Part shown: one piece after another, positions 2,781 through 9,403 of the stretch
Numbering within the stretch: the stretch's first letter is position 1
Layout: each line of letters starts with the position of its first letter
Virus record (IMG/VR): IMGVR_UViG_2531839146_000012
Reading direction: 5' to 3' (one strand)
DNA from: a virus
Lineage: Duplodnaviria; Heunggongvirae; Uroviricota; Caudoviricetes
DNA: 9,403 nt
Notes under the pieces: generated by a model
Told to the model about the DNA's origin: nothing
What the model saw: the letters and a program-made list of their open reading frames with translations, nothing else
Database searches by the model: none
Translations under genes and position numbers: made by a program

Positions 2781-2808
2781 GAGTGCTATGTGATGATTGG
2801 TAGTAACG

Positions 2809-2843
2809 GTAGGTCACTGTGAGCTACCCCCACAGAATTCTGT
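2809..2843. repeat. Isolated copy of the 22-bp repeat core (GGTAGGTCACTGTGAGCTA) followed by CCCCC and a perfect 12-bp palindrome ACAGAATTCTGT
   Basis: 2809-2827 matches the tandem unit at 3028-3135; the palindrome at 2832-2843 is flanked by TACCCC on both sides. Confidence 0.5.
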
Positions 2844-2883
2844 TACCCCTATCAAGTCTGATACCCGATAAGTATAAATAACA

Positions 2884-3022: not shown

Positions 3023-3027
3023 CTATA

Positions 3028-3135
3028 TAGCTCACTGTGAACTAGGGGGGGTAGTTCACTATGAGCTAGGGGGTAGGTCATAGTGAGCTAGGGGGTAGGT
3101 CATAGTGAGCTAGGGGGTAGGTCACTGTGAACTAC
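3028..3135. repeat. Five tandem 22-bp repeats (unit about TAGGTCATAGTGAGCTAGGGGG), each with a palindromic TCAC-N-GTGA core
   Basis: Units start near 3028, 3050, 3074, 3096 and 3118 with 22-bp period; the first unit is in inverted orientation (AGCTCACTGTGAACTAG). Followed by an AT-rich stretch with (TA)6 at about 3203-3214. Confidence 0.65.
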
Positions 3136-3324
3136 AATAAGACTATTAATAAAACTATATTAGATTATTAATTAGATCATAATAATAATATTCTTTATAT
3201 CTATATATATATATGATCTTTTGCCTTCCGGCGTTAGCTTCACTCTCTGGCAAGCAGCCTTACTCCGCTACCTTTCGGGCTTCGTGGCTGGCCCGTTCCG
3301 CTCACACCGAAAGCAAAGCGTTAC

Positions 3325-3366
3325 TTTCTTCGTGTAACTATCGTGGCGGTAACGCCCACGAAGAAA
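3325..3366 (+). other. Stable hairpin with GNRA-type tetraloop (GGCG-GTAA-CGCC) nested in a 9-bp outer stem
   Basis: TTTCTTCGTG (3325-3334) pairs with CACGAAGAAA (3357-3366); inner GGCGGTAACGCC at 3345-3356. Sits in a locally GC-richer segment (about 3216-3420). Confidence 0.35.
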
Positions 3367-3600
3367 TACTATTGCGCTGTGCGCAGTAAGAGTAATCACC
3401 TAACCAATCATACTGATTGCTTATGTGTTAACTCTCTCTACTCTTAATTACCCTCCTACATATAATAACTCTGTTATTCTCTGTAGTTGTGTAATTACTC
3501 GAAGAGAGAGCGGCTAAAGCTCAATTACACTCTGCTTTCCTCGTGTAATTTCACTAAGCCTCAATACAATTCCACTTCCTACTTCTGTAGTCGTGTAATT
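3330..3600 (-). repeat. Inverted copies of the ATTACAC motif (CGTGTAAT) plus a 20-bp direct repeat CT(C/T)CTGTAGT(T/C)GTGTAATT
   Basis: GTGTAAT at 3489-3495, 3543-3549 and 3593-3599; GTGTAAC variant at 3333-3339; one direct ATTACAC at 3524-3530. The 20-mers at 3479-3498 and 3582-3600 are near-identical. Confidence 0.5.
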
Positions 3601-3640
3601 GTTTTCGGTGGAAAAGCCAGAGGCGACACCGAAAGAGAAT

Positions 3641-3710
3641 TCTGATCTTATTAATCTTATCTATCTTAGTTAATCTTCTTACTTATCTTACTTTATCTAC
3701 TTTATTATTA
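3641..3710. repeat. Pyrimidine-rich cluster of TTATCT / ATCTT motifs (AGATAA on the minus strand)
   Basis: TTATCT at 3657-3662, 3683-3688 and 3693-3698, plus several ATCT variants. Confidence 0.4.
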
Positions 3711-4220
3711 ATAATAGCTTTATAAGCTCTCTGACGCAAGAAACAGCATTCAGGAAGGGAATCACCTTAGAAAAGGTGTTCTTTGCGTCATAATGTGTTT
3801 TATGAGGGATTCAGAGGTGTTTCATAACAGGAATGTATAGAGGATACTTTAGGTAATTAAAAATAAGGGGTCTAAATGCTTCTCTAACAGCATTAAGCAG
3901 GGTAGGGAATGGAAACGCATTGCCTACACATATAGGCTCACTACAGAGCTTTACAGAGCGTTTTATAAAGTGACTCTCTATCTTATATCTACCATCACCT
4001 TTTCATATACCTAACAAATACAAAATAAGCCCCTTAAATAAGCCTCTGGCGAGCTAAACAGCCATTAGATAAGGGAATGTATTGCTTTTATCAAAATCTC
4101 GTTAGAACGCGTTTTAGAGCGTTTTAGACAATAATGAAGAATAGCACTACACAGAAGAGCACGAATAGCTAAGAAAAAATGTAAGTACATGAAAAAGATC
4201 AGATTTTTTGTGAAAAGGTA

Positions 4221-4249
4221 TTGACAAATGTTTCTTTATATGTAATAAT
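4221..4249 (+). promoter_or_regulatory. Putative sigma70 promoter of the early operon
   Basis: -35 TTGACA (4221-4226), 17-bp spacer, extended -10 TGtAATAAT (4241-4249). It lies about 110 nt upstream of the first gene. Confidence 0.5.
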
Positions 4250-4359
4250 AGGTATTAGAGGGACAGAAAAACATTCTTCTCTAAATAATCAAAATCAATG
4301 CACTTTGAAGCCGTCAGGCTTGCAAGGTGTTTTTCTTTTAACTGAATAAGGAGTTTTTT

Positions 4360-4548
4360 ATGAAATGGTTTACCCCGGAGCACGTCATCTCGGCATTTAA
4401 AAAAGGTGAGCTTACACGCCATCAAGTAGTAATGAATCGTAATATGGCAAGGAGTCGAGGTTATCCAGAGCGAGCAGCTTGCTTCAATGAAGCACTCAAG
4501 ATTATTGATGAATTAAGAAAAAATGAAAAAGAATCTGAAACAGAGTAA
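4360..4548 (+). CDS. Small hypothetical protein (62 aa), first gene of the early operon
   Basis: AAGGAG RBS at 4348-4353, 6-nt spacer, ATG 4360. No family recognised. Confidence 0.6.
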   Translation: MKWFTPEHVISAFKKGELTRHQVVMNRNMARSRGYPERAACFNEALKIIDELRKNEKESETE

Positions 4549-4567
4549 AGAATAGAAGGAGAAAACT

Positions 4568-4735
4568 ATGAGCGAAACCAAGAAACCAATTCCGCGCACT
4601 TACCTACACGTTGACCCTGAAATCTTCAAGGTTTTATTTGCTGAAGCCAAGAAAAGGCAAATTATGGTCAGTGATTTGATGTTAGAAATCATTACTGAAG
4701 CAGCAGAGAACATCAAACAAAAAAAGGGTAAGTGA
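4568..4735 (+). CDS. Ribbon-helix-helix (CopG/Arc/MetJ-like) DNA-binding protein, 55 aa; below the ORF-track cutoff
   Basis: AAGGAG at 4555-4560, ATG 4568, stop TGA 4733-4735. Translation MSETKKPIPRTYLHVDPEIFKVLFAEAKKRQIMVSDLMLEIITEAAENIKQKKGK fits a beta-strand / helix / helix layout typical of RHH proteins. Confidence 0.55.
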   Translation: MSETKKPIPRTYLHVDPEIFKVLFAEAKKRQIMVSDLMLEIITEAAENIKQKKGK

Positions 4736-4786
4736 TCCTCATTCACTTTAGTAGCGCATTAAGCGTGATTTATAAGGAGATTTTTA

Positions 4787-5479
4787 ATGATTAATCAACT
4801 AACTTTTACAAAACACTATGACACGTTTGATAATGTATCAAAGATTTATTCTGATAAATTCCCTCAAGGAAAAGATTTAGATCTATTACATATTGTGCTT
4901 TATTTTCGATTCCTTAGTTATCAGGAAAACAACCTTAATTGTTATGAAAGTCACGAAACATTAGCTAAGATTTTTAAGTCTTCAGCGTCAACAATTAAAC
5001 GTAAGATAAACGATCTTAAAGAGATGGGATTATTAGAAACATCCCCACATCCTGATCCGTATATTTCATCTTTGATTTACAATGCTCTCCCTCTCACAGA
5101 TGCACATATTACTCCCCCAGGAGAATCATCACTCTCTGATCTTTCTGAGGCAGAAGAAGCACAGGAACAACCTAAAGGCCATAAACAGCCTTCTTTTGAT
5201 GTTCTTGATGATGATTGGGATGCGCCTTTACCGTGGGAGACGGAAGAAACACCTGTTTCATCAAGTGAAAAGGTAGCTAATGATAATGAGGAGGATGTGT
5301 TAGAGAATTTTGCCTCTCTTATCATCCGGGAGAAACACAGAAGAACAGGAGGATCATCATTTATAGACTTTGCAAATTCACTGGCTTATAGACACGGGCT
5401 AAAACGACCAAATGGTATTGAGGCATATTTTGCTAAGAAACATCCCAAAGTATATGAAGACTTTGATATTCCATTTTAA
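4787..5479 (+). CDS. Winged-HTH protein (HTH_36 / replisome-organizer-like N-domain), acidic linker, C-terminus ending EDFDIPF
   Basis: AAGGAG at 4774-4779, ATG 4787. The N-terminal ...CYESHETLAKIFKSSASTIKRKINDLKEMGLLE matches the usual winged-HTH pattern of phage/plasmid replication organizers. An acidic low-complexity linker (DDDWDAPLPWETEE...) follows; the last residues are YEDFDIPF, stop 5477-5479. Confidence 0.8.
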   Translation: MINQLTFTKHYDTFDNVSKIYSDKFPQGKDLDLLHIVLYFRFLSYQENNLNCYESHETLAKIFKSSASTIKRKINDLKEMGLLETSPHPDPYISSLIYNALPLTDAHITPPGESSLSDLSEAEEAQEQPKGHKQPSFDVLDDDWDAPLPWETEETPVSSSEKVANDNEEDVLENFASLIIREKHRRTGGSSFIDFANSLAYRHGLKRPNGIEAYFAKKHPKVYEDFDIPF

Positions 5480-6310: not shown

Positions 6311-6649
6311 ATGAACAAAAACACGTATGACACAATTTACTCACTAATTAATTATTATGAGGATGATTACCTCCTGCCTTTAAACCGCGCTGAACTTGAA
6401 GCATACAAAGAAAACACGCCAGCGGCACTAAATGAGGCGTTTAAACACTGGGATTTAGCTGTGAATGCCTTTGAGCACCTCTCTAAGCGTGTAGAGATGC
6501 TCTGTAAGCGTGAGAACGCATATCTAACAGCGGATCAGCTATTTGAGCTATCAAACTGGATAGAAGGTATTGAATCGGACGTTCGCTATGTGGGAGATGG
6601 CCTTGTCGAACTAGCTCAACGCTTAGGCGCTACTATCACAGAAGAATAA
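6311..6649 (+). CDS. Acidic hypothetical protein (112 aa)
   Basis: GGAG at 6298-6301 then ATG 6311. The track start at 6284 would overlap the upstream gene and lacks an RBS. About 21 Asp/Glu versus 10 Lys/Arg by count. Confidence 0.7.
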   Translation: MNKNTYDTIYSLINYYEDDYLLPLNRAELEAYKENTPAALNEAFKHWDLAVNAFEHLSKRVEMLCKRENAYLTADQLFELSNWIEGIESDVRYVGDGLVELAQRLGATITEE

Positions 6650-6678
6650 AAAAAGCAACAAAAAAGTTGTAAAATATC

Positions 6679-6707
6679 TTGACATTTCATATATTGTATG
6701 TTAATAT
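6679..6707 (+). promoter_or_regulatory. Strong sigma70-like promoter ahead of the late genes
   Basis: -35 TTGACA (6679-6684), 17-bp spacer, -10 TAATAT (6702-6707). Confidence 0.6.
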
Positions 6708-6714
6708 AATTATA

Positions 6715-6932
6715 TAGGGTGATTATTTTTCCTTTATTGGTTCGATATTAAAAATTCTTCTTGTCGTTAAAGGGGAGTAAAATCTCCGCTCCCCGCTTCT
6801 CCTCCTTAAGTAATACTGTGTCATTATTACCTCTTTCCTTTGTTATGCATACATCTTGGAGTGTGCATAACATAGGGTAATTACATAGGTACAAGTTAAT
6901 AAAAGGCGGCTTTAAATGCTGCCTTTTATTTT
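6715..6932 (+). ncRNA. Candidate roughly 220-nt leader / small RNA from the promoter to the intrinsic terminator; no ORF
   Basis: Promoter at 6679-6707 and terminator at 6901-6932 with no ORF over 11 codons between them. Alternative hairpins GGGGAG...CTCC...CTCCCC (6772-6794) and a 9-bp stem TGTTATGCA / TGCATAACA (6841-6849 / 6865-6873). Confidence 0.35.
6901..6932 (+). terminator. Rho-independent terminator
   Basis: Stem AAGGCGGC (6903-6910) / GCTGCCTT (6918-6925, one G-U pair), loop TTTAAAT, then TTATTTT. Confidence 0.6.
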
Positions 6933-6994
6933 GCCCGTTATGCAACTTAAAAGTTGTATTTCTTACTTTAAACAAGGTAACAAGGTTTATATAA

Positions 6995-8916: not shown

Positions 8917-9183
8917 ATGTTAGAAATTAACACTTCTAAAATTAAGAACACAGTTACATTTAGTGTAGATAAAGACAGCTTGAAAAAAGCGAAAGACTCT
9001 ATTACAGGCTTAAAGGAATTCGCAGAAAACATCAAGCCAGCTAAATTAAGGTTTGATAATGTCACTAAAGGCTATAAGAAAGCACAAAGTGAAGTAGATA
9101 AGATTACTAAAAAGCAAGCCCAGGCTGATAAAGCTAATGCTAAAGCACAATTAGCCGCTCAACGTGTAGTTGCAAGAGGGTAA
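8917..9183 (+). pseudogene. Lys/Ala/Gln-rich (coiled-coil-like) protein gene truncated by the IS1 insertion
   Basis: AAGGGGA RBS, ATG 8917. The frame runs into the IS1 terminal inverted repeat starting at 9179, and the stop TAA (9181-9183) is supplied by the IS1 end GGTAATGAC. Translation ends ...AQLAAQRVVARG. Confidence 0.5.
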
Positions 9184-9403
9184 TGACTCCAACTTATTGA
9201 TAGTGTTTTATGTTCAGATAATGCCCGATGACTTTGTCATGCAGCTCCACCGATTTTGAGAACGACAGCGACTTCCGTCCCAGCCGTGCCAGGTGCTGCC
9301 TCAGATTCAGGTTATGCCGCTCAATTCGCTGCGTATATCGCTTGCTGATTACGTGCAGCTTTCCCTTCAGGCGGGATTCATACAGCGGCCAGCCATCCGT
9401 CAT
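9179..9403 (-). mobile_element. IS1 right end (partial; continues beyond the window)
   Basis: 9179 onward reads GGTAATGACTCCAACTTATTGATAGTGTTTTATGTTCAG..., the reverse complement of the canonical IS1 right terminus including the GGTAATGACTCCAACTTATTGAT inverted repeat. Confidence 0.9.
9194..9403 (-). CDS. insB: IS1 transposase InsB, C-terminal fragment
   Basis: Track [72 protein letters not shown] is the recognisable C-terminus of IS1 InsB; stop at 9196-9194. Confidence 0.9.

Follow-up and report, generated by a model that had tools for sequence, protein, structure and literature searches.

Small ribbon-helix-helix (RHH) proteins control several plasmid and phage systems. CopG represses the copG-repB promoter, ORF56 binds its own promoter, and Arc and Mnt control the immI region of the temperate phage P22 via palindromic operators. 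ParG and omega are RHH proteins that bind repeat arrays. In the conflict between phages and their satellites, the Vibrio phage ICP1 encodes Odn (Gp88), which joins a DNA-binding domain like that of PLE RepA to a T5orf172 nuclease and cleaves the origin of the satellite (PMC8263062). Satellites are also known to encode repressors that act on helper genes (PMC8096241), as PLE CapR does. The RHH protein considered here is a new sequence family with a well-known fold and a familiar gene arrangement.

The window, i.e. the whole stretch of DNA that was analysed (9,403 nucleotides), is a truncated copy of a phage satellite cut by IS100 and IS1, which form its two ends (IS100 at ~1-215, IS1 at ~9190-9403). 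Of 5426 complete E. coli genomes, 571 (~10%) contain the satellite island, almost always in the chromosome. Intact satellites measure ~12.6 kb and lie between tRNA-Thr (thrW, beside proA) and a tyrosine integrase; they comprise a variable cargo gene, a non-coding region of ~2.1 kb and a long series of rightward genes. The first part of this series consists of orf62, the RHH gene, a Rep-like gene and four small genes, and the last part of genes for a Phage_cap_E major capsid protein, a 67-aa protein, a 609-aa protein and a Dit-like tail protein. This anatomy is that of a phage satellite. Islands of Klebsiella and Enterobacter have the same gene order at another chromosomal site (a ~62-aa gene, RHH and an HTH_36 gene of 207-247 aa, with the capsid and a ~611-aa gene farther on). 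The satellite capsid shares only 22-25% identity with capsids of phages; among E. coli phages, Phapecoctavirus, of the subfamily Stephanstirmvirinae, comes nearest by this protein. No paper tying a satellite to Stephanstirmvirinae, Justusliebigvirus, phi92 or thrW was found in the searchable literature, and the thrW-integrated E. coli satellite family is apparently undescribed to date.

The window copy has lost the integrase and the Dit-like gene, and of the 609-aa gene it keeps only an 88-aa stub (8917-9183), so that it is probably immobile. A related IS-flanked copy is found on an APEC IncF plasmid. At the cargo position (1015-1566) the window encodes a 183-aa protein with an apparent signal peptide and no family match; the same gene occupies this position in L007, and a serine recombinase does so in L004, L008 and L016 (L numbers designate the loci compared with the window). 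A Rfam scan of the whole window returned no family. At ~3200-4200, between the origin and the early promoter, ~1 kb of well-conserved DNA, with no convincing ORF and no Rfam match, could contain an ncRNA, regulatory sites or a site for packaging. Upstream of the first promoter (P1, below), the non-coding block with the highest conservation is found at 4084-4129 (it contains TCGTTAGAACGCGTTTTAGAGCGTTTTAGAC and is made of ~10-bp tandem units). It is invariant even among divergent satellite lineages, has a weaker copy at 3940-3965, and is 87% identical to L009 3001-3046, from the T5-like Klebsiella phage KPN4 (Sugarlandvirus), where the counterpart belongs to 2 kb of DNA without annotation. A 345-bp gap before the capsid-side genes (6650-6994) contains a second predicted near-consensus promoter (6679-6707), whose leader of ~290 nt carries two good inverted repeats (6837-6876 and 6898-6930).

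The early operon is ordered as predicted promoter (4221-4249), putative leader terminator (4300-4340), orf62, RHH and winged-HTH Rep-like gene. Its features are the following, all on the plus strand:

4221-4249, plus strand: P1, predicted near-consensus sigma-70 promoter (TTGACA, 17 nt, TGnAATAAT)
4300-4340, plus strand: leader hairpin (4300-4330) and T-run (4331-4340), between P1 and orf62
4360-4548, plus strand: orf62, first gene of the early operon, no family match
4553-4786, plus strand: RHH cassette (RBS, ORF and 51-nt spacer), a mosaic module that assorts on its own
4556-4561, plus strand: Shine-Dalgarno sequence of the RHH gene, AAGGAG, with a 6-nt spacer to the ATG
4568-4735, plus strand: RHH gene (predicted strand at ~residues 9-16, helix 17-29/30, helix 34-53, short basic tail)
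4732-4769, plus strand: RHH-rep spacer element (GTGAT 4732-4736, TCAC 4743-4746, TAGTAGCGC 4749-4757, GTGAT 4765-4769)
4787-5479, plus strand: Rep-like gene, 230 aa, allele A (N-terminal winged HTH, acidic linker, C-terminus EDFDIPF)

An earlier note on this DNA had proposed an unlisted 55-aa gene with an AAGGAG ribosome-binding site in the gap between 4548 and 4787, below the length cutoff of the ORF list; coordinates, ribosome-binding site, gap and length were all confirmed. The ORF starts with ATG and stops with TGA (4733-4735), and its 55-aa product is MSETKKPIPRTYLHVDPEIFKVLFAEAKKRQIMVSDLMLEIITEAAENIKQKKGK. It occupies the interval between the stop of the 62-aa ORF (4548) and the start of the 230-aa ORF (4787), and was absent from the list because the default cutoff of the ORF lister was 60 aa. 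The same protein is annotated in related copies by RefSeq (WP_000005056.1, WP_000005054.1) and in phage muut by GenBank (muut_153). AAGGAG or GGAG is retained before the start codon in every lineage, and frame and length (55-57 codons) are preserved down to ~30-35% identity, in Klebsiella and Enterobacter. The dN/dS ratio was 0.07-0.45 across all informative pairs (0.07-0.11 for close copies; 0.1-0.6 for distant copies, in which synonymous sites are saturated). On this comparative evidence, the ORF is a real conserved gene and more than a chance ORF.

Homologues were sought at several scales. A search of 5.8 billion proteins gave 8 close clusters, and a profile search gave 47 clusters from Escherichia, Klebsiella, Enterobacter and Dryocola. 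An exhaustive HMM search of 1.84 billion representatives returned only 8 proteins, and the family is therefore considered as small and enterobacterial; a locus search using the single protein returned only E. coli plus one MAG contig. Two exact inverted repeats lie within the ORF, one of 9 bp (4675-4683 / 4709-4717, TTTGATGTT/AACATCAAA, 25 nt apart) and one of 8 bp (4597-4604 / 4727-4734, CACTTACC/GGTAAGTG, ~120 nt apart); their conservation is uninformative, the cassette being near-identical wherever it is present.

The RHH fold announced by the same note is borne out by the predicted structure of the 55-aa product and by its structural neighbours. The model displays the strand-helix-helix topology of the superfamily within ~45 residues; its best Foldseek match is 1par (Arc), and its best BFVD match is an 'Arc-type ribbon-helix-helix'. 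Further neighbours include CopG (1b01, 2cpg, 1ea4) and omega/ParG-type proteins (1irq, 2bnw, 1p94). DSSP gives no strand in the predicted monomer because the partner chain is absent from the model. In an alignment of 24 RHH-family sequences, T11 is invariant, L13 nearly so, and only V, I or L occurs at position 15; positions 10, 12 and 14 differ between subfamilies. Helix 1 is preceded by a P-D/E-E cap, and helix 2 by an S/T-D/E cap. An alternating polar/hydrophobic strand, a hydrophobic core and helix caps, as expected of the superfamily, are thus all present.

Sequence libraries do not recognise the protein. Pfam, PHROGs, NCBIfam and PADLOC gave no match to it, PDB searches with the sequence and with the profile gave nothing significant, and curated RHH models (Pfam RHH_1, Arc, RHH_3/4 etc., NCBIfam and PHROGs) did not retrieve it; one of the 24 family members matches Pfam RHH_4, at E = 0.17. 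Superfamily membership therefore rests on fold, not on sequence. Alignment with Arc and CopG using hhalign found the right register at a probability of only 3-6% (for CopG, P 0.0066 and probability 6%), and the strand PRTYLHV aligns without gaps with PQFNLRW of Arc. Given the modelled structure, ORF 4568-4735 very probably encodes a real RHH protein. Like other RHH proteins, it would dimerise via its N-terminal strand, and the dimeric ribbon would enter the major groove of DNA, with residues 10, 12 and 14 (R-Y-H here) as the expected base-reading positions; we infer dimerisation and DNA binding from the fold only.

Many of the structural neighbours are RHH antitoxins (MazE-mt9, CopA_SO, VapB, TacA, AtaR, ParD), which would suit the antitoxin of a type II toxin-antitoxin pair. 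However, orf62 and the Rep-like gene match no toxin family, and orf62 does not co-vary with RHH. The protein also has no C-terminal toxin-binding extension, because the fold takes residues 9-53 of 55 and the chain ends 2 residues after helix 2. With neither an adjacent toxin nor this extension, an antitoxin role is scarcely credible.

P1 agrees with the consensus at 11 of 12 positions and has an extended -10 as well; conservation of TTGACAAA and of the -10 extends to every E. coli lineage and to Enterobacter. The leader hairpin has an MFE of -17.5 kcal/mol (z = -3.39; 1 of 200 shuffles as stable) and is conserved in 7 lineages, with 3 pairs altered on both sides (compensatory); a simple terminator scan did not pick up this bulged structure at 4300-4340. 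Placed between P1 and orf62, it would terminate or attenuate transcription, and we infer that RHH is expressed from a strong predicted promoter gated by this element. As a side observation, the hairpin suggests induction of the early operon via antitermination. A gene of 60-63 aa precedes RHH in all satellites, and orf62 varies independently of RHH (58-60% nucleotide identity where RHH has 98-99%).

The Rep-like protein matches HTH_36 and the PHROG replication-initiation families 270, 428, 391 and 678, has no helicase, primase or nuclease domain, and is likely an iteron binder of replication-initiator type. In E. coli, replication and repair proteins are recruited by the C-terminal tip of SSB. 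We take the C-terminus of the Rep-like protein (window 5456-5476; EDFDIPF, with DDFDIPF, YDSIPF and EDFDLPF in other alleles) to resemble this tip (..DFDDDIPF); by mimicking the SSB tail, it could attract host factors to the origin of the satellite.

The gap between RHH and rep is 51 nt long, without a predicted terminator, and the position of RHH upstream of the initiator is conserved in the satellites of E. coli, Klebsiella and Enterobacter. A minimal RHH protein is thus encoded directly upstream of a predicted co-transcribed initiator-like gene, as in systems of the CopG/ORF56 type. By this analogy, the RHH protein would be a small transcriptional regulator tuning its co-transcribed replication module. 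That it is a DNA-binding regulator of the early or replication module is, in our estimate, an evenly balanced proposition.

The earlier note had assigned the protein another target, namely the palindromic repeats of the origin-like region, as an operator or centromere binder. This region of the window contains six 22-bp palindromes (TAGGTCA..TGAGCTA, at 2808 and 3026-3135), four GGAAAT palindromes (2883-2981) and AT-rich blocks, and the proposal is in line with ParG and omega, since the window has arrays of the kind that such RHH proteins bind. Comparison between satellites was informative on this point. At least four alleles of the Rep N-terminal winged HTH were distinguished:

Rep allele A: window, L004
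Rep allele B: L003, L005, L006, L007
Rep allele C: L008
Rep allele D: L016

Every Rep allele whose origin was examined has its own iterons: GTAACG-N-CGTTAC for allele B (origins of L005 and L007 examined), ACAGAATTCTGT and TATCA-N-TGATA for allele C, and a mosaic for allele D. RHH1 (identical or V22I) pairs with Rep alleles A and B, and RHH2 (~40-47% identical to RHH1) with alleles C and D. The 22-bp and GGAAAT palindromes are found only in allele-A satellites (window and L004). In L003, L005, L006 and L007, which belong to three lineages and encode RHH1 with allele B, the 2.4 kb upstream contain 0 window palindromes, L005 and L007 having B-type iterons. Because the palindromes are missing despite the same RHH and track the Rep N-terminal allele, they belong to Rep, not to RHH. 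The phages muut and inny (see below) also encode RHH but share no other DNA with the non-coding region of the window. There are ~two repeat families per origin allele, so that a second binder is needed, and C1-type arrays (ACAGAATTCTGT) are present in both RHH2 satellites examined, a correspondence confounded by shared ancestry (n = 2); perhaps a second allele-specific binder serves the palindromes too, besides Rep. Overall, binding of the palindromes by the RHH protein is very improbable. The centromere-binder role did not survive either: no ParA-type partner was found in the window or in intact islands, and a ParG/omega-type reading was rejected for want of this partner gene and because repeat arrays follow Rep. 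Window 2800-2866 contains, side by side, single copies of the iterons of other alleles (GGTAGTAACG for B, CCCCCACAGAATTCTGTTA for C1 and CCCCTATCAAGTCTGATA for C2), and this adjacency suggests a mosaic origin built by allele swapping.

The RHH gene assorts differently from its neighbours. In L005 and L006 the cassette is 98-99% identical to that of the window, versus 58-60% for orf62 and ~53% for rep; in L003 the corresponding values are 98%, 78% and 53%, and the other proteins of this locus are only 13-31% identical to those of the window. L008 shows the opposite pattern, with flanks at 96-99% and a cassette at only 63-78%. Window 4556-4794 is 100% identical to phage muut. As read from these identity profiles, the RHH gene with its RBS and spacer is a self-contained mosaic module, which recombines independently of promoter, orf62, Rep allele and origin iterons.

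The primary sequence of the spacer is kept in every lineage (GTGAT, (A/T)TCAC, AGTAGC, GTGAT), and in Klebsiella the first GTG(G)AT falls outside the RHH ORF. The spacer variant follows the RHH type, never the Rep allele, in all five combinations seen, including RHH1 and spacer 1 with Rep domain C in muut. An RNA hairpin in the spacer was considered and rejected (only -4.3 kcal/mol, zero compensatory pairs). Since the cassette assorts independently of every other non-coding region, the cis target of RHH is most probably inside it. This target would travel with the cassette, the GTGAT/TCAC/AGTAGC element being the best, though weak, candidate: it may be the cis site of RHH, or an element controlling rep expression. 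Subfamilies with different predicted base-reading residues (R-Y-H, R-C-H, K-Y-T) all retain the element, and this fits a generic rep expression signal as well as an operator. Phage Mt1B1_P17 retains the 3' half of the spacer without an RHH gene, which counts against an operator. The spacer is accordingly a doubtful candidate for the operator of RHH. Its ATCAC/GTGAT words are reminiscent of omega heptads, a likeness that we take as a lead only.

Other sites were searched around the gene. No inverted repeat of at least 10 nt was found in 4130-4800, and no palindrome or conserved repeat overlaps P1. Enrichment of TAGTAGCGC, TCAC-N16-20-GTGA, TTTTAGAGCG and TAGTAGNGNATTA in the window was in no case above shuffles. 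A second copy of the spacer core (6617-6640, minus strand), upstream of the second promoter, is absent from L004 and L007; being confined to the window, it was not considered as a conserved site. The inverted repeat AATGTTT/AAACATT flanking P1 was also discarded, as it is not conserved in L005 and L006 despite the same RHH. An unbiased search for repeated words near RHH in all RHH1 satellites gave, outside the cassette, just short 7-mers and no candidate site. RHH1 and RHH2 satellites, whose RHH types are ~40% identical, have a near-identical promoter region, so that if RHH acts at P1, both types must read the same site.

Outside satellites, the gene was found in only two phages among 50,697 phage records: muut and inny (three database records), which are lytic Justusliebigvirus of ~146 kb. 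In sister phages the genes flanking the insertion are contiguous, and the cassette with the next gene is therefore an accessory insertion in a variable locus. This next gene is a chimera, also encountered in a phage of another genus, and the part of the window homologous to the phage chimeras is 4787-~5150:

L001 4232-5230: muut_154, chimeric gene of phage muut
L002 4233-5336: inny_184, chimeric gene of phage inny
L014 2194-3180: QNJ49226, chimeric gene of phage Mt1B1_P17

The first ~125 or ~165 residues of the chimera are the satellite Rep N-terminal domain, of allele C in muut_154 and of allele B in inny_184, 95-99% identical at the nucleotide level to chromosomal satellites. The rest of the chimera, past the junction ..QLPPTE|WKMFKK, consists of another HTH_36 domain and, at the C-terminus, a MUG113/T5orf172-like domain (MUG113 at 22.3-22.5 bits, marginal versus the cutoff of 22.3; T5orf172 at 15.3-15.5 bits, below the cutoff of 20). 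Mt1B1_P17 carries the same chimera with allele D, 90-91.5% identical to satellites in 43 genomes, preceded by the 3' half of spacer 2 and no RHH. Three lytic Stephanstirmvirinae phages thus have alleles C, B and D, at 90-99% nucleotide identity and with a shared break point, ..QLPPTE, and in all three the N-terminal DNA-binding domain comes from a satellite origin-binding protein, as in Odn-like proteins. The flanks of muut and inny are ~99% identical, yet different Rep N-terminal alleles lie between the same cassette and the same junction. Together these phages show that RHH travels with the replication-specificity module; the chimera of Mt1B1_P17, which lacks RHH, shows that RHH is not an obligatory partner of the chimera. 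The transfers look very recent, and the retention of RHH in phages therefore says nothing about selection.

The phage copies bear on two further explanations. Instead of its own operon, the protein may have the helper phage as its target in trans, or take part in the conflict between phage and satellite, either repressing helper genes like PLE CapR or, as a phage copy, keeping the early or replication module of the satellite shut. A cassette 100% identical in lytic muut and nearly so in inny, located in an accessory variable locus directly upstream of a Rep-derived chimera, would agree with this, and satellite repressors of helper genes are known (PMC8096241). On the other hand, no candidate site is shared between satellite non-coding DNA and the phages, the gene is in just 2 of the 50,697 phage records, the Mt1B1_P17 chimera does without it, and retention after such recent transfers is uninformative on selection; we regard action in trans as unlikely. 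The second explanation is that the cassette matters in phages, and perhaps in general, as DNA: it would be a 5' homology arm which, with the conserved linker ..VKAVP(D/E)QLPPTE, permits swaps of the Rep N-terminal domain, the protein being dispensable there. The sharp identity boundaries at the cassette edges agree with this, as do muut and inny, with their ~99% identical flanks, different alleles, same cassette and same ..QLPPTE|WKMFKK junction. But purifying selection acts on the ORF, and every satellite lineage keeps it intact to ~30-35% identity, as a mere homology arm would not require; such an arm accounts for the phage copies only, and this explanation appears equally improbable.

Regulation of its own replication module by RHH is thus kept as the preferred reading, and a broader, tentative one may be built around it. 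The cassette would be the conserved 'handle' of a swappable module (RHH, spacer and Rep N-terminal domain) traded between capsid-encoding enterobacterial satellites and lytic Stephanstirmvirinae. The phages would fuse the captured origin-binding domain to a T5orf172-type nuclease directed against the satellite origin, an E. coli counterpart of ICP1 Odn that would have arisen three times or more, with different alleles. Two of the phages would moreover co-express the satellite RHH, to control the weapon or to keep the replication module shut. Taken jointly, these three statements are a possibility that we would not put higher than tentative.

Alone, the RHH protein is one more small RHH regulator, but its sequence family is recognised by no library. 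The satellite whose regulatory and replication module it marks is present in about one tenth of complete E. coli genomes, and its cassette is the clearest sequence trace of recent DNA exchange between satellites and lytic phages of the phi92/phAPEC8 type, several of which are under study for therapy. If the chimeras are nucleases directed against satellites, the ICP1-PLE arms race over origin targeting would have a second, tractable case in E. coli, and RHH would be the obvious first handle on the control of the early operon. What is more novel than RHH itself is the satellite family, together with the phage chimeras.

Compared with known systems, omega of pSM19035 and ParG of TP228 share the RHH fold (1irq, 2bnw, 1p94) with the satellite protein; here, in contrast, there is no ParA partner and no contiguous heptad array, and arrays follow Rep. 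Arc and Mnt of P22 are alike in that Arc is the best Foldseek match (1par), with a gapless strand alignment, and unlike in a sequence identity of ~16% and in that no palindrome accompanies the RHH gene. Odn resembles the phage chimeras in being the product of a lytic-phage gene that combines a satellite origin-binding domain with a T5orf172/GIY-YIG-type domain (PMC8263062). Host, phage family and satellite family are different, and Odn has 42% amino-acid identity to RepA (PMC8263062), far below the nucleotide identity of the chimeras to satellites; no co-captured RHH gene is reported for Odn. It is the closest known system to the phage chimera, whose nuclease role is predicted only, and not to RHH. 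For RHH itself, ORF56 of the Sulfolobus plasmid pRN1 is a copy-control RHH protein encoded upstream of orf904, and the satellite gene likewise precedes an initiator-like gene; ORF56 is however archaeal, without sequence homology, and its partner is a primase-polymerase/helicase. CopG (RepA) of pMV158 differs by having no detectable sequence homology to the satellite protein, which is encoded by the second gene of its operon, behind a putative leader terminator, with no pseudo-symmetric operator found at the promoter and with a downstream Rep of the wHTH iteron-binder type instead of a rolling-circle nuclease. The two are alike in size (~45-55 aa), in consisting of a sole RHH domain, and in their position immediately upstream of a co-transcribed initiator (repB in pMV158).
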